From IMG/VR virus record IMGVR_UViG_2802429251_000008, positions 1 to 10,321 of that record: a stretch of 10,321 nucleotides of DNA; one strand, 5' to 3'. This document shows, piece after piece, positions 413 through 10,321 of the stretch; the stretch's first letter is position 1; the number at the start of each line of letters is the position of its first letter. The notes under the pieces were generated by a model, which searched no databases, was not told the origin of the DNA, and saw only the letters and a list, made by a program, of their open reading frames with translations. The position numbers and the translations under genes were made by a program. This stretch comes from a virus. Lineage: Duplodnaviria > Heunggongvirae > Uroviricota > Caudoviricetes.

Positions 413-568
413 AACATTTAAGCTGATGACCACCACGCTTTTTATTGACCATTTTGCACGCAAACTGGAAAACCTGGCGTCGTCATCTATTCTTAAAGGG
501 CAAGGCAACTAAGCCTGCATTAATGCCAACTTTTAGCGCACGGCTCTCTCCCAAGAGCCATTTCCCTG

Positions 569-602
569 GACCGAATACAGGAATCGTATTCGGTCTTTTT
601 TT
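569..602 (+). terminator. Intrinsic terminator-like hairpin plus T7 tract
   Basis: Perfect 10-bp inverted repeat GACCGAATAC (569-578) / GTATTCGGTC (586-595), 7-nt loop, then TTTTTTT 596-602. No ORF upstream on + strand; may end a small RNA or be part of the attachment region. Confidence 0.5.
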
Positions 603-636
603 AATTGTATTTAAAATCAATTAGTTGCAAACGCCT

Positions 637-2163: not shown

Positions 2164-2352
2164 TCACGAGGACAGAAGTTTCTCGCAATTAAAATTTATC
2201 AGCTTTACTTTCTGCTCTCTGGAAACGCCTGCTTCTTTTTTCCCTGAGAGCATTTTTTCGCATTCTGATTTCGTTAATTTAGATTTTGAATATCTTGTCC
2301 AGTTAGTAGGAGTGCCACCTTCCTTTTCAATAGTGGCAGTAATTTTATACAT
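2164..2352 (-). CDS. Small hypothetical protein (Rac ydaC position)
   Basis: 62 aa from ATG at 2352 with strong SD GGAGGT 4 nt upstream; start overlaps the lar stop by 8 nt (translational coupling). Assignment by position only. Confidence 0.5.
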   Translation of the reverse strand: MYKITATIEKEGGTPTNWTRYSKSKLTKSECEKMLSGKKEAGVSREQKVKLINFNCEKLLSS

Positions 2353-2575
2353 GAACACCTCCATTATTATTTCCAGTAGTTCGTTTATTCCATCTTTCGA
2401 GTGCTTCTTTTTCACTTCCACTATAGCCGGTTCGGGATTCGCATCCGTTACACTTTGCGCGGTAATATCCTGAAATGGCTTTCACCGTTACTGATGGACA
2501 ACCACAAAATGGACATGGTTTGACTTTTGTGTATCGCACTGGTTTTTCTCCTGTGAGCTTTGTGGCTGCGCTCAT
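2345..2575 (-). CDS. ralR: Lar/RalR-family restriction-alleviation protein (Cys4 zinc-binding)
   Basis: Contains CPFCGC...CNGCES Cys4 motif typical of the Lar family; sits between exo and the small ORF as ralR does in Rac. Start chosen at ATG 2575 (SD GGGGAG 8 nt upstream), overlapping the exo stop as ATGA. Confidence 0.7.
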
Positions 2576-3252
2576 TTCCATTGCTCCCCAAATACAAAAC
2601 CAATTTCAGCCAGTGCCTCGTCCATTTTTTCGATGAATTCTGGCACCATCTCGTCAAAACTCGCCATGTACTTTTCATCCCGCTCAACCACGACATAATG
2701 CAGGCCTTCACGCTTCATACGCGGGTCATAGTTGGCAAAGTACCAGGCATCTTTTTGCGTCACCCACATGCTGTACTGCACCTGGGCCATGTAAGCCGAC
2801 TTTATGGCCTCGAAACCACCGAGCCGGAACTTCATGAAATCCCGGGAGGTGAACGGGCATTTCAGCTCAAGGCCGTTGCCGTCATTGCATAAACCATCGG
2901 GAGAGCAGGCGGTGCGCATAGTCTCGTCACGATAGATGATCGGGGATTCAGTAACATTCACGCCGGAAGTGAACTCAAACAGGGTTCTGGCGTCGTTCTC
3001 GTACTGTTTTCCCCAGGCCAGCGCCTTAGCGTTAACTTCCGGAGCCACACCGGTGCAAACCTCGGCAAGCAGGGTGTGGAAGTAGGACATTTTCATGTCA
3101 GGCCATTTCTTTCCGGAGCGGGGTTTTGCTATCACGTTGTGAACTTCTGAAGCTGTGATGACGCCGAGCCGTAATTTGTGCCACGCATCATCCCCCTGTA
3201 CGATAGCTCTCACGTCGATCCCGGTACGCTGCAGGATAATGTCCGGTGTCAT
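2572..3252 (-). CDS. exo: Lambda exonuclease (Red alpha)
   Basis: 226 aa, near-identical to lambda Exo from memory ([17 protein letters not shown]...GFVFGEQW); start overlaps the bet stop. Confidence 0.95.
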
Positions 3253-4034
3253 ATTGCCACCTTCTGCTCTGCGGCTTTCTGTTTCAGGAATCCAAGAGCT
3301 TTCACTGCTTCGGCCTGTTTCAGTTCTGACAATGCATGAATGTCGCGGCGAAATATCTGGGAACAGAGCGGCAATAAGTCGTCATCCCATGTTTTATCCA
3401 GGGCGATCAGCAGAGTGTTAATCTCCTGCATGGTTTCATCGTTAACCGGAGTGATGTCGCGTTCCGGCTGATGTTCTGCAGTGCATGCGGTATTTTCGAC
3501 AATGCGCTCGGCTTCATCCTTGTCATAGATACCAGCAAATCCGAAGGCCAGACGGGCACACTGAATCATGGCTTTATGCCGTAACATCCGTTTGGGATGC
3601 GACTGCCATGGTCCGATGATTTCTTTGCCTTCTCGGGTTTTGAATGGTTCGCGACGGCACTCATCCATCCACTCGGTAACGCAGATCGGATGATTACGGT
3701 CCTTGCGGTAAATCCGGCATGTACATGATTCATTGTCCTGCTCAAAGTCCATGCCATCAAACTGCTGGTTTTCATTTATGATGCGGGACCAGCCATCAAC
3801 GCCCACCACCGGAACAATGCCGTTCTGCTTATCAGGGAAGGCGTAAATCTCTTTCGTCCACGGATTAAGTCCGTACTGGTTGGCGACGATCAGCAGCGCG
3901 ATGAATTGCGCATCGCTGGCATTACCTTTAAATGCCGTCTGGCGAAGAGTGGCGATCAGTTCCTGCGGGTCGACAGAATCCATGCCGACGCGTTCAGCCA
4001 GCTTCCCGGCCAGTGTTGCAAGTGCTGTACTCAT
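3249..4034 (-). CDS. bet: Lambda Bet single-strand annealing protein (Red beta)
   Basis: 261 aa, near-identical to lambda Bet from memory ([27 protein letters not shown]...). Confidence 0.95.
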
Positions 4035-4039
4035 TCGTT

Positions 4040-4339
4040 TTATACCTCTGAATCAATATCAACCTGGTGACGAGCAATGGTTTCAACCATGTACCGGATG
4101 TGCTCCGCCACACGTTCCTGAAATTCAACATCGTCATCAAATGCGCGACTGATTGCCTGTTTGCTGGCACCGTGGCGTTGCAAATGGTCGATGCAGAGCG
4201 ATTCAAACAGATGCTGGGGCAGACCTTTTTCCAGGTCGTCCGCCAGCGCCGTTTCTTTTTCTTCGCGAACGATTTGCTGGTAGTGGCGTGACCATGCCTG
4301 CTCTTCAATGCGATCAAAAATTGGGCATGTACTCATCAT
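4040..4339 (-). CDS. gam: Gam, RecBCD inhibitor (short GamS-length form)
   Basis: 99 aa; from residue 13 onward matches lambda Gam C-terminal 86 residues (SRHYQQ...HQVDIDSEV). The first 12-15 residues differ from lambda and the upstream frame is occupied by the ORF672 3' end. Confidence 0.9.
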
Positions 4340-6332
4340 CCGTCACCCCAAAATTTTCAAGTTTGTTTGCAATCATCATTGCAATACCCGGAATTAATGG
4401 CGCTGAGGCTATACCCGCAGGATTTGCACATAAACCGTAAACCGCTGCAATCACCACTTGTCTTTTCCAGTCGAGTTTTTCTAATGATGAAGCTGCTGCT
4501 TCGCCAGTTTCATCACTGCAATCGCGATGCGGATCGCTGCCATCGTTCTCCTTGTGCGGATGTTCAGCACCTTCCATTTCCTCCAGACCTTTTTCCTGAT
4601 ATTCATTCTGATTTTCTTCATTAAAGGTTTTCTGATACGTTGCGTCGCCCATCACCGCGCCGCAGTCAGGACAGTTGCCGCCGCCAGCCTGACCGCAGGC
4701 GATGCAAACTTTCTCCGTTTCCTGTTGTTGCACTACTGGCTCAGGCTGTTTCGTTTCTGGCTCGTTTTGTTGCGTATTTGGGTCGTTCTGTTCCGCTTTT
4801 TGGTCGTTATGTTCCGTTTCTGGCTGATTCTGGTACACAGAGTCGCGGGTCTGGATCCCCTTAACCCATTTCGGATCATTCGGGTCGCTAATCCCTTCAA
4901 CAAATTCTCCGCGAGAGGCAGCCAGTAATTTGTCTGCATCGACAGGATTTTTGGGCGGAATGTTTTTCCGGGCTTCATGGAGTTCTGCCCGCAGTTTCTG
5001 ATATTTCGCATCAACAGAATTTACCTGTGACTGAGCATCCAGCGACTGCGTGTCCTGATGATGTTCAGTTGCATCCGGTTCCACTGTTTCAGCCGTTGCC
5101 TGTTCATCTGCCATTGCGCAAGATGGTTGCAGTTTTTCTTCATCATCCTGTTTTTCTTCTTCTGTTACACGCTGCGGCATCGGGGCAGAGGAACGACCGC
5201 AGGCAATATCCACGATTTCTGGATCAGGGTTGGCATGATCAGTTTCAGTCAGTACTTTGTTTAGATATTCAGTGACGTGTGCGGGGATAACCTCGATCCC
5301 AATTGGTGCTTCTTTTACGGACGCAACCACGATGGCGCGGGAATAATCCAGCCCGCCAGGCATGGTGATGAATTTGTCGCGGAAAACAGAAAAGGGCGGT
5401 TTATTTTCAGCGATAATTTCCTCGACACGTTTAGCGTGTGCCGGATGAAGGTTATAAATGTCCACGTCCATTGAACGAGCCAGTACGCCAGTGGCTACGT
5501 CGCGCGCCAGTGACGTCAGATCGTGAACGAAACCTTCGCCGCGATCGGTGAGGTTCCCGCCGCCAGCATTAGCGCCGGAAGCCGTGCGCGTGATGCGTGA
5601 AACACGATTTCCTTTCATCCACTCTTTTGTCAGCAGACCACGATCGGTGTAGTCTGCGTCCAGGTATGCTTCGAAAAAAGCAGTCATCAGCCCCAGGCTT
5701 GAATTGCCTGGATTAGGGAAAACTCTGTCAGTATCACGCACCAGTTTGTGGAGATCGCGAATTTCCAGCGGGTCGAGCAGGCTGGTTTTGTGGGAAACAG
5801 CCAGGGCAGTAACAGCTGGTAGTTCTTCAGCTCGTGCAATGTGTAATGCCTGGAGTTCGTCGCGTGAAACGTGCGTTACCGGTTTTTCGCTGCCGTGTTG
5901 AGCAAGCCAGCGAATGGGCAGCTCCTGACCGGAAATCGGGAGTAGCATATTCTCCTCAATCTCCGTCATGTCTTCGCCATTAACATTGGTATTGTCAGTG
6001 CTGGCTGGTTTGTCCTGCGCAGAGGATGAGGGCGCGATAAATACCATTGTGATGCCATCTTCCCCGCCTTTTTCGTAACGGTTGCAGAATTCCGTATCAA
6101 ATACGCCCTCTGGTGGAAGGTCATCAACAACGGGCAAATTGACGCGAACAGGTTTTTTAAAGTCATCTTCATCGTAGCCAGCATCGTCAATCGCAACAGC
6201 ACCACGGGATATGGCAATGGATAATTTTTTCGCTTCAGCCCAGTAGAAACCGCCTTTAATACCGAGACGTTTTCTTACTTTGTCATTTTTTGCTTCGTAA
6301 TACAGTGGGTAAACTTGTTTATCGGTGCTCAT
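4314..6332 (-). CDS. Large uncharacterised early-operon protein; possible RecE N-terminal-region relative without a nuclease domain
   Basis: 672 aa uninterrupted; SD GAGG upstream of ATG 6332; stop overlaps gam start by about 26 nt. Globular N-terminal region, acidic low-complexity middle, five heptapeptide repeats, CxxC-x9-CxxC zinc ribbon, and a Gly/Ala/Pro-rich hydrophobic C-terminal tail. Occupies the recE slot of Rac. Confidence 0.75.
4736..4850. repeat. Degenerate 21-bp tandem repeats inside ORF672
   Basis: Units such as GGTCGTTCTGTTCCGCTTTTT / GGTCGTTATGTTCCGTTTCTGG on + strand; encode [35 protein letters not shown] on the minus-strand frame. Confidence 0.6.
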
Positions 6333-6401
6333 TGTTTTTTAACCTCAACTCAGATTAAAATTACTGCGAGTGATGAATAAATGTCCTAGGTTCTTCACTC
6401 A

Positions 6402-6432
6402 GGCCTGCACAGTGTGCAGGCTTTCTTTTTTT
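6402..6432 (+). terminator. Plus-strand-oriented hairpin plus T-tract inside the leftward operon
   Basis: 9-bp arms GCCTGCACA / TGTGCAGGC (6402-6420) then TTTCTTTTTTT (6422-6432), abutting the racC-like stop. Oriented against the surrounding genes. Confidence 0.4.
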
Positions 6433-6707
6433 CAGATTTCACCTTTTAATTTCATTGCAATCAGAGTTGCCAGAAATTCGGCTTTTTTTTCTGCGGGCAG
6501 ATTCTTTCCTATGTGCACCAGACACATTTCTTTAACACCATCGTTAAGTGTTTTAACGTTGCCTGATGGACCGTCGATATCAACCACAGTGAATGGGGTT
6601 TCTTTATTTTCTGTCTTAATCACGTAGCCAATACGCTTTCCTTCCAGGGTAACTTCGTGAACAATGTCATCAGTAGTAACAACAGTGGCTTCATAACTGG
6701 TAATCAT
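6432..6707 (-). CDS. racC: RacC-like small protein
   Basis: 91 aa from ATG 6707 (SD AAGGAG 6 nt upstream); size and position match Rac racC. Symbol assigned by size and synteny, not sequence recall. Confidence 0.55.
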   Translation of the reverse strand: MITSYEATVVTTDDIVHEVTLEGKRIGYVIKTENKETPFTVVDIDGPSGNVKTLNDGVKEMCLVHIGKNLPAEKKAEFLATLIAMKLKGEI

Positions 6708-6781
6708 GTTTTTCTCCTTAATTAAGGTTGATCGAATCCCTGCCATTGCTGGCATAAATTCAGTTTCGGATAGTCAGTTAA

Positions 6782-6952
6782 TTAAAGTTCGTGTGCCATC
6801 TGGTCTTTTTCGGCACAACTTTCACTACAATATTTTTTCATTTCCGTCGTTGGGATAACTCCACGCATGAAATGAAGAGGTCTTTTAATACTTTTGCTTT
6901 CTTCAATTTCTTTATTGCAAAGGTGGTAAGCACATTTTATTTTCTTAGTCAT
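6782..6952 (-). CDS. ydaE: YdaE-like small Cys-rich zinc-binding protein
   Basis: 56 aa, below the 60-aa ORF-track cutoff and found by manual translation: [56 protein letters not shown] (CxxxxC...CxxxC). Start overlaps upstream stop as TGATG. Size and order match Rac ydaE. Confidence 0.55.
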   Translation of the reverse strand: MTKKIKCAYHLCNKEIEESKSIKRPLHFMRGVIPTTEMKKYCSESCAEKDQMAHEL

Positions 6953-7173
6953 CACCATGACTCCGCCTTTACAGGTAAACCATCACGACCGAGGAAGACT
7001 TTAATCATGCAGTCAGAAATGCATGTTTTTGTAGTCAGGTTACGAATATAAAGTTTTCGCTTTTTAATATTGTTTGCCGAGGCGATATATGTCCGGCCTT
7101 CATGAAGAACATAATCACCAGGAGTCACACACTGACGTGGTATTTCATCAGTTCCGAAGTGATGTGCAATCAT
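6952..7173 (-). CDS. kilR: KilR-like small protein (candidate FtsZ/cell-division inhibitor)
   Basis: 73 aa from ATG 7173 (SD GGAG 6 nt upstream; the track start at 7185 overlaps the SD). Size and order match Rac kilR. Function inferred from Rac. Confidence 0.55.
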
Positions 7174-7248
7174 AATTATCTCCATTTTTACAAATGAACT
7201 TTGTTGATGCGGTGCCTGGCGCCTCCAGGTGACTGCAACCAGTTAACA

Positions 7249-7346: not shown

Positions 7347-7392
7347 TTAAAAAGGGGCGGCAGGGCAGCCACGGAGTAGAACTGATGCCGCC
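7347..7392 (-). terminator. Candidate leftward intrinsic terminator
   Basis: On minus strand: stem GGCGGCA (7392..7386) / TGCCGCC (7362..7356), 23-nt loop, then CC + TTTTT (7353..7349). Long loop lowers confidence. Confidence 0.3.
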
Positions 7393-7516
7393 AAAGACTA
7401 CACATAGCAATGTCGTTATTTACAACCGGAGGCGCACTCCCACCATTTAAATTTAACAGACAAGACCGACTCTTTATGAATACCGGAAATGCACCTTCGT
7501 GTTGTGCGCCTGTCTT

Positions 7517-7544
7517 TTTACCACTTCAGGCTCGGTGGTATACT
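7517..7544 (+). promoter_or_regulatory. Extended -10 promoter for the + strand 64-aa ORF
   Basis: TGgTATACT (7536-7544) with -35-like TTTACC (7517-7522) at 16-bp spacing; ATG at 7579 preceded by TAAGG. Confidence 0.4.
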
Positions 7545-7578
7545 GGAGTTCTCACACAACCAGTAATAAGGTATTCCG

Positions 7579-7773
7579 ATGGATAATAAAGACAAAGCCT
7601 GGCTACTTGCTTTAGCTTTCAGCATCAGATCGCAGCGAGAAACAACTCATCAAGAATTTTTCTCGGAAATCGAGAATGCTGAGAATGAGTTTTTGTCACT
7701 ACTCAATGAACGTGATGCTAAAAAAAGCTCCGATTCACTTAAGGCTTGGGCGAAACTAGGCTCTTCAAAATAA
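7579..7773 (+). CDS. Small hypothetical protein (64 aa), opposite in orientation to neighbours
   Basis: ATG start with SD-like TAAGG, own promoter, two in-frame stops immediately upstream; 3' end overlaps the convergent 72-aa ORF by 35 nt. No recognisable family. Confidence 0.4.
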   Translation: MDNKDKAWLLALAFSIRSQRETTHQEFFSEIENAENEFLSLLNERDAKKSSDSLKAWAKLGSSK

Positions 7774-7957
7774 TTGCTTCTGTAGCGGCATGAACAACTG
7801 TTTTTGCCGCCTCTTCAACTTCCTTGTCTGGACGACCAGCCTTTACTTTTTCTGCAATGACCTCCAGCACAGTTGGAAGAACCTTGCTAATAAGCATGGC
7901 TGCCACATCTTTGCTGCACAATTGACCGTTAATAACAACCAGATCTTCACCAACCAT
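7739..7957 (-). CDS. Small hypothetical protein (72 aa), first gene after the leftward promoter
   Basis: ATG 7957 with SD AAGGGG 7 nt upstream; downstream of a consensus-like promoter. Not Arg-rich, so not an N-type antiterminator. Confidence 0.45.
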   Translation of the reverse strand: MVGEDLVVINGQLCSKDVAAMLISKVLPTVLEVIAEKVKAGRPDKEVEEAAKTVVHAATEAIILKSLVSPKP

Positions 7958-8022
7958 CTTTTTTCCCCTTAACGCCGGGTGGCGGAACTAAAACCTACAG
8001 CGCCGTGCTGTTCTTGATAGAA

Positions 8023-8051
8023 ATATTAGTAACACGGATATTTTAAGTCAA
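8023..8051 (-). promoter_or_regulatory. Leftward early promoter (pL-equivalent candidate)
   Basis: Minus-strand -35 TTGACT (8051..8046), 17-bp spacer, -10 TAATAT (8028..8023); sits between the racR terminator and the 72-aa ORF in an AT-rich region. Confidence 0.45.
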
Positions 8052-8147
8052 TAGTATGGCGTATGATATTTTTGATTTAGTAACTATGTAAATGTTTTTT
8101 CAAGGGAAAAATATTAGTTATACAGCTGATTTGCAGAAGTTATGGCA

Positions 8148-8177
8148 CAAAAAAACCGACTAAGACGTCGGTTTTTT
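8148..8177. terminator. Bidirectional intrinsic terminator downstream of racR
   Basis: AAAAAAA (8148-8154), stem ACCGAC / GTCGGT with 4-6 nt loop, then TTTTTTT (8171-8177). Confidence 0.7.
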
Positions 8178-8204
8178 TGTTGTGGATGGGGTAGTGAGTA
8201 GTGG

Positions 8205-8666
8205 CTACTGGTTACGTTTCTTTAGTGCCAGCATGTTCTCGAAGGCTTCCTCGTAGAGCTTGTTTAGTCCACGTAGCTGGTTAAGGAGTTTGGCTTTTTC
8301 TGACGCAGGTAGAATCTCGAAGAGGTTAAGTAACTCAGCCTGTTCTTCATTGACCAGCCTCCATCCTTTGCCTGAAAAGCTATCATCATAAGTATCTGAT
8401 GATCTTACATAATTCATTAAGTCTTTAAGGTCTTCTCGAATGTCCTCTGGTTTTACCTTTAACAGAGCCGCAAATTTTAGCGCAGCGTCGGTATTTACCG
8501 GTATCTTGCCGTTCAGATACTGGCTAACGGTGCCTTGAGATTCGAATCCCAACAACTCAGCCGCCAGCTCTTGAGTCAGCTTCAGCTCTTTTTTTCTTGC
8601 ATTCCATGCGGCTTTTAAATTCTTGCTCGCTTCTGGAGTTGCAATCACTTCGCGTGTTTTTTTCAT
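8205..8666 (-). CDS. racR: XRE-family HTH prophage repressor (RacR-like)
   Basis: 153 aa; N-terminal HTH (LTQELAAELLGFESQGTVSQYLNG); divergent from ydaS-ydaT exactly as racR is in Rac. Confidence 0.8.
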   Translation of the reverse strand: MKKTREVIATPEASKNLKAAWNARKKELKLTQELAAELLGFESQGTVSQYLNGKIPVNTDAALKFAALLKVKPEDIREDLKDLMNYVRSSDTYDDSFSGKGWRLVNEEQAELLNLFEILPASEKAKLLNQLRGLNKLYEEAFENMLALKKRNQ

Positions 8667-8690
8667 ACATAGAGTTTATTTGTTTTACCA

Positions 8691-8767
8691 ATATTATCAA
8701 AGATAGTCTGACTGTTGATCTTTAAAATTAGTGGGGCTAATATTTGATCGAGGCATAACGTAGAAGG
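8691..8767. promoter_or_regulatory. Divergent promoter/operator region between racR and ydaS
   Basis: Plus-strand -35 TTGATC (8715-8720), 17-bp spacer, -10 TAATAT (8738-8743) for ydaS; minus-strand -10-like TAATAT (8696..8691) for racR; palindromic elements AAAGAT-n14-ATCTTT (8699-8724) and AGTCtGACT (8705-8713). Confidence 0.45.
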
Positions 8768-8773
8768 TTGGCT

Positions 8774-9049
8774 ATGAACTTAAGAGACTATTTAAAAGAG
8801 AAACATATCACCCAGTTACAGTTTGGGAAGCTAACGGGTTTATCTCAGGTGCATGTAAGTCGAGTGCTGGGGGGCTATGAAAGATTCAGCCCTGAAAAAG
8901 CATTACGTGTTGCTGAAGTAACGAATTTCGAGGTTACACCTCATGAACTCCGGCCTGATATCTACCCGAATCCGACCGATGGTTTACCTGTTGGATGTAA
9001 GGCTAACACACAAAATGCACAGGAGTTGATTCATGAAAATCAGGCATGA
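8774..9049 (+). CDS. ydaS: YdaS-like Cro/HTH protein (toxic when derepressed in Rac)
   Basis: 91 aa from ATG 8774 (SD GAAGG; the track start at 8768 is TTG); HTH GLSQVHVSRVLGG; overlaps ydaT start by 17 nt. Confidence 0.75.
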   Translation: MNLRDYLKEKHITQLQFGKLTGLSQVHVSRVLGGYERFSPEKALRVAEVTNFEVTPHELRPDIYPNPTDGLPVGCKANTQNAQELIHENQA

Positions 9050-9455
9050 GCACATCGAATCAGTGTTGTTAGCCCTAGCCGCTGAAAAAGGGCAGGCGTG
9101 GGTCGCTAACGCAATTACTGAAGAATATCTGCGCCAGGGGGGCGGCGAATTGCCCCTGGTACCAGGCAAGGACTGGAATAATCAGCAGAACATCTATCAC
9201 CGTTGGTTAAAAGGTGAAACGGAAGCGCAAAGGGAAAAAATTCAGACACTGATCCCTGCGGTTCTGGCAATTCTTCCGCGCGAGCTGCGTCACCGACTCT
9301 GCATCTTCGATACCCTGGAACGCCGTGCATTACTGGCGGCGCAGGAAGCGTTGAGTACGGCAATTGATGCGCATGATGATGCAGTCCAGGCCGTTTACCG
9401 GAAAGCACATTTCAGCGGTGGTGGGTCGCCCGGTGATTCTGTCGTAGTGCATTGA
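9033..9455 (+). CDS. ydaT: YdaT-like protein
   Basis: 140 aa; matches Rac YdaT in length and in recalled sequence (MKI.HEHIESVL.ALAAEKGQAWVANAITEEYLRQGGGELPLVPGKDWNNQQNIYHRWLKGE...); SD AGGAG 7 nt upstream. Confidence 0.8.
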   Translation: MKIRHEHIESVLLALAAEKGQAWVANAITEEYLRQGGGELPLVPGKDWNNQQNIYHRWLKGETEAQREKIQTLIPAVLAILPRELRHRLCIFDTLERRALLAAQEALSTAIDAHDDAVQAVYRKAHFSGGGSPGDSVVVH

Positions 9456-9500
9456 TTGAAATTAATCGTGCCGGATTGTTTTGTTCGGTATCAGTTAAAT

Positions 9501-9519
9501 GTAACGCTGCGAGCGTTAC
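9501..9519. repeat. 19-bp perfect palindrome GTAACGCT-GCG-AGCGTTAC just upstream of the O-position gene SD
   Basis: Read directly; copy 1 of a repeated palindrome family. Confidence 0.7.
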
Positions 9520-9532
9520 AAGGTGAAAACAA

Positions 9533-10321
9533 ATGGCTTCAAACTGGATAAAGCTCGAGGTTATTACGCCGGATAAGCCGGAAATATTCAGGCTTGCTGA
9601 GATTCTGAATATTGATCCAGATGCCGCATTAGGGAAGGTTATTCGCTTCTGGGCATGGGCGGATCAACAAATGATAGACGGTAATGCAGATTGTAACGCT
9701 CGCGGCGTTACAAAAAGTGCAATAGATCGCATCACTTTTATGGCTGGTTTTGCTGATGCGTTAATTCAGGTTGGATGGCTGGTCGAAAATGACGTTGGGC
9801 TTTCTCTACCTAACTTTGAACGTCATAACGGAAAAAGCTCTAAAAAACGGGCGGTTACAAACGAGCGAGTTACAAAAATACGCGAACTGAAACGAAAAGG
9901 TAACGCTACCAGCGTTACACAAACGGATCAAAAAGCGTTACCAGAGGAAGAGGAAGAGGAAGATATAAATACTGATCTCCCCCTAAATCCCCCTCGCCAA
10001 AAACGAGCGTCTAAAAAATTCGAGCCGGAGGCTATTGAGCTGCCCGATTGGTTGCCGGAAACACTCTGGCATGAGTGGGTCCGGTTCAGGCAGGCATTGC
10101 GAAAACCGATTCGAACGGAGCAGGGCGCTAACGGGGCGATACGGGAACTGGAAAAATTCCGCCAGCAGGGTTTTACACCTGAGCAGGTGATTCGACACAG
10201 CATCGCCAATGAATACCAGGGCCTGTTCGCGCCGAAAGGTGTTCGGCCTGAGACGTTGCTCCGACAGGTTAACACCGTCTCGTTGCCGGACAGTGCGATC
10301 CCGCCTGGCTTCAGGGGGTAA
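9533..10321 (+). CDS. Putative replication-initiator-like protein (lambda O position; Rac ydaU slot) with internal palindromic repeats and acidic linker
   Basis: 262 aa complete ORF ending at the last base of the window; follows ydaS-ydaT; contains EEEEEED linker right after the DNA repeats. Replication role inferred by synteny only. Confidence 0.6.
   Translation: MASNWIKLEVITPDKPEIFRLAEILNIDPDAALGKVIRFWAWADQQMIDGNADCNARGVTKSAIDRITFMAGFADALIQVGWLVENDVGLSLPNFERHNGKSSKKRAVTNERVTKIRELKRKGNATSVTQTDQKALPEEEEEEDINTDLPLNPPRQKRASKKFEPEAIELPDWLPETLWHEWVRFRQALRKPIRTEQGANGAIRELEKFRQQGFTPEQVIRHSIANEYQGLFAPKGVRPETLLRQVNTVSLPDSAIPPGFRG
9693..9711. repeat. Palindrome copy 2 (GTAACGCT-CGC-GGCGTTAC)
   Basis: 18 of 19 positions match copy 1; lies inside the coding sequence. 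Confidence 0.65.
9900..9918. repeat. Palindrome copy 3 (GTAACGCT-ACC-AGCGTTAC)
   Basis: Perfect 8-bp arms; flanked by degenerate copies (GTTACAAA x2 at about 9853-9876, AGCGTTAC at 9934-9941) and followed by GAGGAAGAGGAAGAGGAAGA. Confidence 0.65.

Follow-up and report, generated by a model that had tools for sequence, protein, structure and literature searches.

A probable lambda-plan immunity region with a non-RacR repressor and a Rac-type ydaT in a Rac-like prophage

In a 10,321-nt stretch of DNA (the window), which covers just the left 10 kb of a prophage and ends at 10321, we found a lambda-CI-like repressor gene unrelated to racR, followed by a Cro-like gene and a genuine Rac-type ydaT. 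Judging from the sequence, positions 7992–9455 most probably form a lysis/lysogeny (immunity) region built on the lambda plan, in a Rac-like lambdoid prophage whose immunity specificity would differ from that of K-12 Rac. The analysis established the gene identities, the mosaic boundaries, and the positions and conservation of the motifs, while the regulatory roles attached to them are worded conditionally below. A preliminary description had read the same DNA as the RacR-YdaS-YdaT repressor-toxin module of Rac. Its three intact ORFs were indeed present, at 8205–8666 on the minus strand and at 8768/8774–9049 and 9033–9455 on the plus strand, and each product matched a Pfam family above the gathering score; the name given to the first gene could not be upheld, and the element is not Rac sensu stricto.

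Genes and boundaries of the exchanged cassette

The coding features and the segment that contains the first two of them are as follows.

7992–9026, no strand: probably heteroimmune cassette with the left operator-like sites and predicted PL, a terminator, the repressor gene, the predicted OR and the Cro-like gene; replaces K-12 racR-ydaS
8147–8180, minus: intrinsic terminator closing the repressor transcript (14-bp perfect stem, 6-nt loop, U-run)
8205–8666, minus: prophage repressor (CI analogue), 153 aa, ATG at 8666; Pfam HTH_3, 38.6 bits
8774–9049, plus: Cro analogue (YdaS-family HTH protein), 91 aa; PF15943, 30.8 bits against a cut-off of 30, and also HTH_3
9026–9043, plus: predicted YdaT box TTGATTCATGAAAATCAG, which covers the ydaT start codon at the right-hand cassette junction
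9033–9455, plus: YdaT (CII analogue), 140 aa, overlapping the Cro-like ORF by 17 nt; PF06254, 41.9 bits against a cut-off of 21
9533–10321, plus: YdaU-like replication initiator in the position of lambda O, following ydaT in the rightward operon; matched phrog_2509 (replication initiation protein, E = 1e-89)

The repressor had been taken for RacR, yet BLASTP detected no similarity to the K-12 protein (E = 26, 6/31 identities), and the Pfam signals differ, with HTH_3 in the repressor and a weak HTH_17 match alone in RacR. In RacR, a linker connects two HTH domains (PMC9638921, Fig. 6 legend), an architecture that did not appear in the AF2 model of the repressor. That model, of only moderate confidence (pLDDT 69.7, and 54–73 in the C-terminal part), comprises one five-helix HTH domain (residues 11–76), followed through a disordered linker by two long helices. 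Among PDB sequences the lambda CI N-terminal domain was matched (E = 3e-4), and Foldseek matches reached target-normalised TM scores of 0.74–0.83, so that the overall layout is a lambda-CI-like HTH at about residues 11–76, the linker, and a C-terminal helix pair with a tail resembling that of DicA; the C-terminal 42 aa, the only part that aligns to K-12 DicA, are 38% identical to it. Both the Pfam search and the AF2 model showed the protein to lack the PF00717 (S24) self-cleavage domain, which N-terminal-domain relatives of 234–259 aa do carry, and induction should therefore not proceed by RecA-stimulated self-cleavage. No antirepressor gene was found in the window or the inspected flanks. More than 1000 contigs carry the exact repressor sequence, and Enterobacter, Hafnia and Serratia have full-length homologues of 57–92% identity in the same arrangement. 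The hairpin behind the gene (8147–8180) was missed by the terminator scan and recovered from the repeat and fold results, as an inverted repeat of 100% complementarity with a predicted RNA fold of −19.7 kcal/mol (z = −7.8).

The second gene had been called ydaS. Its product is a family member, if a marginal one by Pfam score, encoded by the first gene of the operon divergent from the repressor, but it is a distant relative, with 32% identity to K-12 YdaS across 50 aa. It matched phrog_35 (E = 5e-27), and its best PDB matches were entries named "antirepressor protein Cro" (8co2/8c7k); DicC was ruled out as a relative, as no alignment was obtained. A TTG start at 8768 would give 93 aa, while AGAAGG precedes the ATG at 8774, from which the gene is read in RefSeq relatives. 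The analogy with Cro is imperfect even in K-12, where YdaS did not repress racR (PMC9638921).

The third gene proved to be a true Rac-type ydaT orthologue, as described before. Its product is 94% identical to K-12 Rac YdaT and retains H56, R57 and W58, which serve DNA binding, as well as L107 and A110 of the tetramerisation helix (PMC11879457); it also matched phrog_163, a "CII-like transcriptional activator" (E = 7e-36), and the PDB entries 8bt1/3c4r. The predicted box at the ydaS/ydaT junction completes the family assignment, having 1 mismatch to the consensus TTGATT-N6-AATCAA (PMC9986795); the K-12 box, ATGATTCATGAAAATCAA, has been footprinted (PMC11879457). The downstream 9533–10321 product is 63% identical to K-12 YdaU in its C-terminal part, and the order repressor, Cro-like gene, YdaT, replication genes is kept in four genera.

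When the window was compared with K-12 Rac by blastn, homology broke off at 7991 and set in again at 9027, which marks 7992–9026 as a swapped, probably heteroimmune immunity cassette; its right junction coincides exactly with the published YdaT box. Of 5426 complete E. coli genomes, about 180 contain this cassette at ≥95% identity, as does the 52-kb record of phage Rac-SA53. Across those 5426 genomes, a Rac-type ydaT occurs in 1453, the K-12 racR-ydaS cassette in 1085, and a third cassette type, 70% identical to 7992–9026, in about 119. The E. coli cassette of loci L005/L006 is 68% identical, with 70% identity in the repressor and 67% in the Cro-like protein; both recognition helices differ, and its left OR site is another palindrome, TTATGA-N7-TCATAA. 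We dropped this cassette from phylogenetic footprinting of operators, since its specificity is probably different, and used it for promoter conservation only. Prophages of the Rac-SA53 type were reportedly described by Jobling in 2016.

The location of the element sets it apart from Rac. The window starts in yebY, followed by the ryeA/ryeB sRNAs and a 358-aa integrase, placing the prophage at yebY/ryeA-ryeB, whereas K-12 Rac adjoins ttcA and encodes the 411-aa IntR. Neither hallmark of Rac sensu stricto, the ttcA site or IntR, is found here, and the int/xis genes, intact in the window, have no blastn match to K-12 Rac.

Operator-like repeats, predicted promoters and YdaT boxes

The divergent layout and operator-like repeats of the preliminary description were borne out: the repressor and Cro-like ORFs are 101 nt apart (107 nt up to ATG 8774), and the gap holds an exact palindrome, ATTAG-N5-CTAAT, at 8727–8741 (0 mismatches) and a related site at 8678–8692. 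The sites of the two repressor-gene flanks are listed here.

8023–8051, minus: predicted PL-like promoter, TTGACT-17-TAATAT, 9/12 in the promoter scan (putative function)
8025–8039: OL1 operator-like site, core ATTAG-N5-CGGAT, overlapping the −10 and spacer of PL
8063–8092, minus: second leftward promoter-like site, TTTACA-18-TATCAT, 10/12, the best consensus match in the region
8110–8127, plus: distal left operator-like site, AATATTAG TTATA CAGCT, with direct and inverted repeats
8673–8700, minus: predicted PRM-like repressor promoter, TTGATA-16-TAAACT, 9/12 in the scan
8678–8692: OR2 operator-like site, core ATTGG-N5-CAAAT on the minus strand, in the PRM-like spacer
8715–8745, plus: predicted PR-like promoter, TTGATC-17-TAATAT, 8/12 to consensus
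8727–8741: OR1 operator-like site, ATTAG-TGGGG-CTAAT, covering the PR spacer and −10

The recurring motif, AATATTRG (AATATTAG copies included) with the core ATTAG-N5-CTAAT, has 4 copies in the window, all of them in the non-coding DNA on either side of the repressor gene; one copy each falls on the predicted PL, PR and PRM-like promoters, and the fourth adjoins PL. Window-wide, 0.64 copies were expected, and in local shuffles the mean was 0.066, with 0 of 20,000 reaching 3; these enrichment figures are optimistic because the motif was chosen after the repeats were inspected. A single 5+5 palindrome per ~100 nt is not significant alone, but its recurrence is. On the left, AATATTAG lies at 8022–8029 within the predicted PL/OL1, and OL1, read from the sequence, occupies the same register on PL as the operator on PR; the PRM-like promoter overlaps the motif in that register too. 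OL1 and OR2 are both conserved in Enterobacter L008 (repressor 92% identical), which also has AATATTAG at the place equivalent to 8110–8127, and across its sites the operator half-sites are kept while the spacers are changed. In OL sites 2 and 3 the right half-site is a poor match. The RacR operator (T/A)TAGGC-N3-GCCTA(T/A), of which the K-12 sequence has 3 on the OL side and at least 3 on the OR side of racR, had no match within 7990–8775, even at 3 mismatches. Repeated operator-like sites thus appear to flank the repressor gene and to overlap the predicted PL, PR and its own promoter, as in lambdoid immunity regions.

From these positions we infer the operator assignments, promoter use and leaderless start proposed here. 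PR was found by reading the sequence, having escaped the promoter scan because it scores only 8/12; its −35 and −10 hexamers stay 17 nt apart in four homologous but divergent loci (from Enterobacter, Hafnia and the E. coli type with 70% identity), with a variable spacer sequence. The repressor mRNA is probably leaderless, since the PRM-like −10 ends 7 nt before ATG 8666; no Shine-Dalgarno sequence is present upstream of this ATG. The 8063–8092 site, whose spacer holds a weak operator-like TTTAG-TAA-CTAT element (8074–8090), is a candidate alternative or additional PL, giving two PL candidates in all.

A second predicted YdaT box, TTGATT-N6-AATCAG, lies at 2115–2132, 52–69 nt upstream of the xis start, and the two exact matches to TTGATT-N6-AATCAR in the window compare with 0.01 expected. 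Its proximal half overlaps a poor −35, with a good −10 (TATATT) 20 nt beyond. The same box precedes xisR in K-12 Rac, despite an unrelated int-xis module there, and in both elements the xis-side box coincides exactly with a mosaic junction, like the ydaT box at 9026/9027. YdaT boxes may therefore also serve as conserved "linker" sequences for lambdoid module exchange. It is also conceivable, though we lean against it, that YdaT is a fuller CII analogue than published and controls integration/excision genes as well; the YdaT literature cited here does not mention the xis-upstream box. A LexA box considered upstream of xis (CCAGTA-N11-TACTGG region) was rejected as a misfit to CTGT-N8-ACAG.

A proposed switch and competing readings

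In the switch we propose, the 153-aa repressor would bind pseudo-palindromic operators (AATATTAG / ATTAG-N5-CYAAT) on either side of its own gene. Occupancy of OR1 over the PR −10 and spacer would silence the ydaS-like/ydaT/ydaU replication operon, and OR2, in the spacer of the repressor's own promoter, may provide negative autoregulation. To the left, past the strong terminator, OL sites would cover PL and silence the leftward operon of small ORFs, the DicF-like sRNA, kil and recombination genes, and possibly xis-int via read-through. By analogy, the YdaS-like protein would act as Cro, and YdaT as CII, binding the box at its own start codon and driving leftward transcription into the repressor gene. 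For the homologues in K-12 Rac or CP-933P, experiments have shown the function of the YdaT box as well as the box itself, the Cro/CII roles and toxicity upon derepression (PMC11879457, PMC9986795, PMC8630535, PMC5917428). We infer that induction takes another route than cleavage, for instance by an antirepressor, by dilution or through a host factor, and that the repressor may be conditionally essential in the lysogen; the latter stands at about an even chance and would be true of most prophage repressors.

The orthologous "repressor-toxin addiction" module of K-12 Rac, in which an essential repressor silences two toxins, shares the layout and the nearly identical YdaT, and K-12 racR is essential owing to ydaS/ydaT (PMC5700373, PMC5700377). 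Over-expressed YdaT is toxic via rcsA activation (PMC11879457), and the leftward operon of the window carries kil and a DicF-like sRNA, so derepression would probably be harmful, and loss of the repressor plausibly so. Orthology is nevertheless refuted by a repressor unrelated to RacR and by the absence of RacR operators, and K-12 YdaS toxicity is not transferable to a protein with so short and weak a match. The terms "toxin" and "addiction" go back to the 2017 papers (PMC5700373, PMC5700377) and overstate the case: in later work YdaS counts as an analogue of Cro, and YdaT as one of CII that is toxic only if over- or mis-expressed (PMC5917428, PMC8630535, PMC9986795, PMC11879457), and the toxin or toxin-antitoxin (TA) view is rejected (PMC5917428, PMC8630535, PMC9986795). 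Any addiction would also be leaky, because K-12 cells escape repressor loss through prophage excision (PMC11014345) and int/xis are intact here. We consider this reading improbable. A type II TA pair with the divergent HTH protein as third component is suggested by the Pfam names "YdaS_toxin" and "YdaT_toxin" and by weak HigA/HipB-like NCBIfam matches of the YdaS-like protein (18.9 against a cut-off of 47.7 bits, far under it), but seems highly improbable: both proteins are HTH DNA-binding regulators by their PDB matches, YdaT binds DNA as a POU-like tetramer (PMC9986795), homologues showed no TA behaviour in experiments (PMC8630535), nor was any found by Christensen-Dalsgaard 2010 as cited in PMC5917428, and the genes lie in a lambdoid early region, upstream of replication genes.

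The ORFs could instead be intact merely by recent descent in a silent relic, a switch that controls nothing owing to a defective prophage, dead promoters or a dispensable repressor. Many Rac-like elements are cryptic, the late genes lie outside the window, and PR is modest; however, the exact repressor sequence recurs on more than 1000 contigs and homologues of 57–92% identity retain full length and synteny across four genera, which indicates purifying selection, the hexamers of the promoters and the half-sites of the operators are preserved where spacers differ, all ORFs of at least 40 aa with an annotated counterpart in close relatives are uninterrupted, and Rac-SA53 carries the same cassette. 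We regard a relic as quite unlikely and retain the lambda-plan immunity region.

As a textbook lambdoid switch, this biology is unsurprising to a specialist, and the main value of the result is correction: a Rac-type ydaT in a genome does not warrant assuming racR, and K-12 findings on RacR operators, C-protein cross-talk and essentiality are not transferable to the 7992–9026 cassette. The few strains reported with ydaT but without racR (PMC5700373) would be explained by ydaT accompanying other immunity cassettes.

Comparison with known immunity regions

Like racR-ydaS-ydaT of K-12 Rac (b1356–b1358), the region occupies the same position in a Rac-like early region, sets a divergent repressor against a Cro-like/YdaT operon, and has predicted operators that flank the repressor gene and overlap PL and PR; a nearly identical YdaT, a box across the ydaT start codon and a downstream ydaU-like replication gene are also shared. 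Unlike K-12 Rac, it has a repressor unrelated in sequence and architecture, predicted operators of the form ATTAG-N5-CTAAT rather than WTAGGC-N3-GCCTAW, a Cro-like protein of low identity, ydaS and ydaT that overlap by 17 nt instead of lying 22 nt apart, and another integration site and integrase.

With lambda cI-cro-cII it shares its best sequence and fold match (the repressor N-terminal domain), the predicted OL/PL and OR/PR/PRM logic, a probable leaderless repressor mRNA, Cro-like, CII-like and replication genes in that order, and a left arm with kil and recombination genes. It differs in lacking the S24 C-terminal domain and hence RecA-mediated cleavage, in having two clear OR sites rather than three, in lacking rexAB, and in that YdaT is a POU-like tetramer recognising an inverted repeat and not a CII homologue (PMC9986795). 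The Rac-SA53 annotation names the repressor/Cro-like pair dicA/dicC, and DicA of Qin is likewise a short HTH repressor without a protease domain and with a similar tail, but the NCBIfam DicA score (NF007257) is 35.1 bits against a cut-off of 101, too low for DicA membership, and the Cro-like protein shows no similarity to DicC. The PaaR2-YdaS-YdaT region of CP-933P (O157:H7), whose PaaR2 we set alongside by its description, also has a CI analogue without a peptidase motif, YdaS as Cro analogue, YdaT as CII analogue and a TTGATT-N6-AATCAA box at the ydaS/ydaT junction, and its switch is bistable (PMC8630535, PMC9986795). By contrast, the window has no paaA2-parE2 TA genes after the repressor, and CP-933P YdaT is only ~30% identical to Rac YdaT (PMC11879457).

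Immunity genes and the replaced cassette

Comparison of each of the three proteins singly with its counterpart in the retrieved K-12 Rac region showed that the labels of the preliminary description, which saw an intact RacR-YdaS-YdaT repressor-toxin immunity module at 8205-9455, are only one-third right, while the three ORFs themselves are all present and intact as described.

Genes of the immunity region
8205-8666, -, repressor ORF, 153 aa; Pfam HTH_3; PHROGs transcriptional regulator/repressor
8768-9049, +, YdaS-like ORF, 93 aa counted from TTG
9033-9455, +, YdaT ORF, 140 aa; 17 nt shared with the YdaS-like ORF
9533-10321, +, replication initiation protein gene (PHROGs), next after ydaT

The YdaT label was borne out by 94% identity to K-12 YdaT across all 140 residues, with retention of H56, R57, W58, L107 and A110, which matter for DNA binding and tetramerisation (PMC11879457); the protein scores 41.9 bits for Pfam YdaT_toxin (cut-off 21) and belongs to phrog_163, "CII-like transcriptional activator". 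For YdaS, the family name stands at 30.8 bits for Pfam YdaS_toxin (cut-off 30), but alignment with the K-12 protein is limited to 50 residues at 32% identity; HTH_3 also matches, PHROGs assigns it to phrog_35 (repressor-like), and an alternative start, ATG 8774 after AGAAGG, yields 91 aa and is the RefSeq choice in near-identical genomes. The RacR label could not be upheld: the 153-aa repressor has no similarity to K-12 RacR detectable by protein comparison (E=26), and the RacR operator consensus, (T/A)TAGGC-N3-GCCTA(T/A) (PMC9638921), present in K-12 as three copies either side of racR, does not occur in the equivalent stretches around the repressor gene of the window.

DNA homology with K-12 Rac stops at 7991 and restarts at 9027, and 7992-9026 (left operator region, terminator, repressor gene, intergenic region and Cro-like gene) is therefore a replaced cassette, by its sequence a classical lambdoid "imm" substitution. 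We consider it likely that a heteroimmune lambdoid immunity cassette, with a lambda-CI-like short repressor, a Cro-like protein and its own predicted operators, is joined here to a genuine Rac-type ydaT. The lambda CI N-terminal domain matches the repressor N-terminal region by sequence (E=3e-4) and in Foldseek (TM 0.74-0.83 normalised to target, 28-32% identity). In the repressor's AlphaFold model (pLDDT 69.7), residues 11-76 form a five-helix HTH domain modelled with confidence, residues 84-106 are a disordered linker, and two helices follow at the C-terminus. Over its final 42 residues the repressor shares 38% identity with the K-12 DicA tail, but the NCBIfam DicA model gives it only 35 bits (cut-off 101). 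No S24 peptidase domain was found in the repressor; PF00717 is present in more distant relatives of its N-terminal domain (234-259 aa). The exact repressor sequence occurs in >1000 contigs, and its full-length homologues in Enterobacter, Hafnia and Serratia (57-92% identity) are always transcribed divergently from genes for a YdaS-like protein and YdaT, with a 106-nt spacer.

Predicted operators, promoters and YdaT boxes

Operators and promoters were assigned at the sequence level. The palindromic operator-like elements previously noted in the intergenic region are present, for example the exact palindrome ATTAG-TGGGG-CTAAT (8727-8741), and a repeat finder identified two elements left of the repressor gene related to that region (D2, I4, I17). 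The 10.3-kb window contains four copies of the word AATATTRG (8022, 8110, 8688-8695(-) and 8737-8744(-); 0.64 expected), and dinucleotide shuffles of the two AT-rich flanks only gave a mean of 0.066, with at least three copies in 0/20,000, although these enrichment figures are optimistic because the motif was picked post hoc; its fuller form is ATTAG-N5-C..AT.

Predicted promoters
8715-8720 and 8738-8743, +, rightward early promoter PR, TTGATC, 17 nt, TAATAT; spacer and -10 under palindrome 8727-8741
8051-8046 and 8028-8023, -, leftward early promoter PL, TTGACT, 17 nt, TAATAT; promoter scan and sequence
8700-8673, -, repressor promoter, TTGATA-16-TAAACT; second right-operator (OR) site within spacer

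The predicted left operator OL1 has the same register to PL as the palindrome has to PR, and the 17-nt spacing of the PR hexamers is kept in four divergent loci. At the Enterobacter locus (repressor 92% identical) half-sites are kept and spacers altered (OR1 ATTTG-TATAG-CTAAT; OL1 ATTAG-TAATA-CGGAT). Since the repressor promoter -10 ends 7 nt from ATG 8666, which no Shine-Dalgarno sequence precedes, the repressor mRNA is probably leaderless, as is the lambda PRM transcript. Between the repressor gene and PL lies a hairpin (8147-8180) with a perfect 14-bp stem and a U-run (-19.7 kcal/mol, z = -7.8). K-12 Rac shares this layout but has operators of its own.

The leader from PL to the first leftward ORF, 7958-8016 (-), is conserved in all E. 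coli immunity types examined, in K-12 in part (GGCGGAACTAA...CCGGCGTTAAGGGG); it contains the short hairpins ACAGC-ACGGC-GCTGT and CGCC-ACCC-GGCG and may function in antitermination or processing, for instance as a nut-like signal. Two small convergent ORFs within 7531-7957, 7579-7773 (+; phrog_22868) and 7739-7957 (-; phrog_23495), stand where other Rac-like prophages that share this immunity cassette have ydaF/ydaG (DUF1391). The 72-aa member of the pair is the first gene past PL and occupies the lambda N position.

A YdaT box, TTGATTCATGAAAATCAG at 9026-9043, lies over the ydaT ATG, and the right mosaic junction (9027) coincides with it. The footprinted K-12 box, ATGATTCATGAAAATCAA, is needed for a leftward promoter that raises racR expression to be activated 29-fold (PMC11879457); in CP-933P the consensus reads TTGATT-N6-AATCAA (PMC9986795). 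TTGATT-N6-AATCAR has two exact matches in the window, versus 0.01 expected. The second exact inverted repeat of this type, TTGATTTTTAATAATCAG at 2115-2132, lies 52-69 nt ahead of the xis start codon (ATG 2063, -), with a -10-like TATATT 20 nt further on and a poor -35. The same box precedes xisR in K-12 (L001 3504-3521, K-12 1413503-1413520) and in two other compared loci (L002, L004) despite unrelated int-xis modules, and homology starts exactly at the box. This upstream box has no mention in the YdaT literature examined and may be an analogue of lambda PI. The stretch from ydaT to the replication gene, 9452-9520, contains a weak YdaT-box-like repeat, TTGATTGAAATTAATCGT (2 mismatches), and a 7-bp hairpin without a T-run, GTAACGC-TGCGA-GCGTTAC (9502-9520).

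Integration site, mosaic modules and spread

The window begins with yebY (1-342) and the host ryeA/ryeB sRNA pair, in which SraC/RyeA 462-606 (-) and SdsR/RyeB 503-602 (+) overlap, with the integrase gene (734-1810) just after. Because the prophage adjoins yebY and this pair, its attachment site is within the sRNA locus and not at ttcA, where K-12 Rac is located; IntR and the 358-aa integrase encoded here are unrelated, and strictly speaking the prophage is not Rac. At 2164-2581 lies an intact RalR/RalA type I toxin-antitoxin pair: RalA sRNA 2168-2346 (+; 223.8 bits) is antisense to a DUF1187 ORF, 2164-2421 (-), which a RalR-like ORF, 2345-2581 (-), adjoins (labels as in relatives). A mosaic recombination module follows at 2572-6332.

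Recombination genes
2572-3252, lambda-type exo
3249-4034, lambda-type bet
4040-4339, lambda-type gam
4314-6332, RecE-family ORF, 672 aa; followed by exo, bet, gam

K-12 recE matches only part of the RecE-family ORF (4493-5994 to L001, the K-12 Rac region, 5626-7082; 89% identity), and the window has no counterparts of K-12 recT and the recE 3' part; it looks, from sequence comparison, as if Red genes stand in place of recT and the RecE nuclease end.

Prophages at ttcA with IntR also have the same cassette, as does the phage record Rac-SA53 (52 kb), where it is labelled dicA/dicC; it thus moves between lambdoid backbones. Of 5426 complete E. coli genomes, 1453 have Rac-type ydaT, 1085 the K-12 racR-ydaS cassette, about 180 this cassette and about 119 a third type with 70% identity to it. 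The few strains reported to have ydaT without racR (PMC5700373) are accounted for by ydaT also joining non-racR cassettes. The exact YdaT sequence is on record from "Escherichia sp. MOD1-EC5189" (WP_105271429.1), and region 8100-9550 has no match above 98.8% among complete E. coli genomes; a cryptic Escherichia lineage, and not typical E. coli, may be the source of the window.

Possible consequences of repressor loss

In K-12, racR is essential because RacR represses ydaS-ydaT (PMC5700373, PMC5700377), and toxicity of YdaT over-expression acts via rcsA activation (PMC11879457). On RacR depletion xisR and intR rise about 100-fold, and depleted cells survive through Rac excision (PMC11014345; bioRxiv 10.64898/2026.09.06.749655). 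The leftward operon of the window has a DicF-family antisense sRNA, 7355-7406 (-; 60.9 bits, gathering score 48), immediately upstream of kil (6952-7185), and hence two cell-division inhibitors, presumably under PL control. Derepression would also free both, which makes harm from repressor loss plausible, though with int and xis intact cells could probably escape it. Such harm would be the normal property of a prophage repressor, and the cassette is of a well-known kind.
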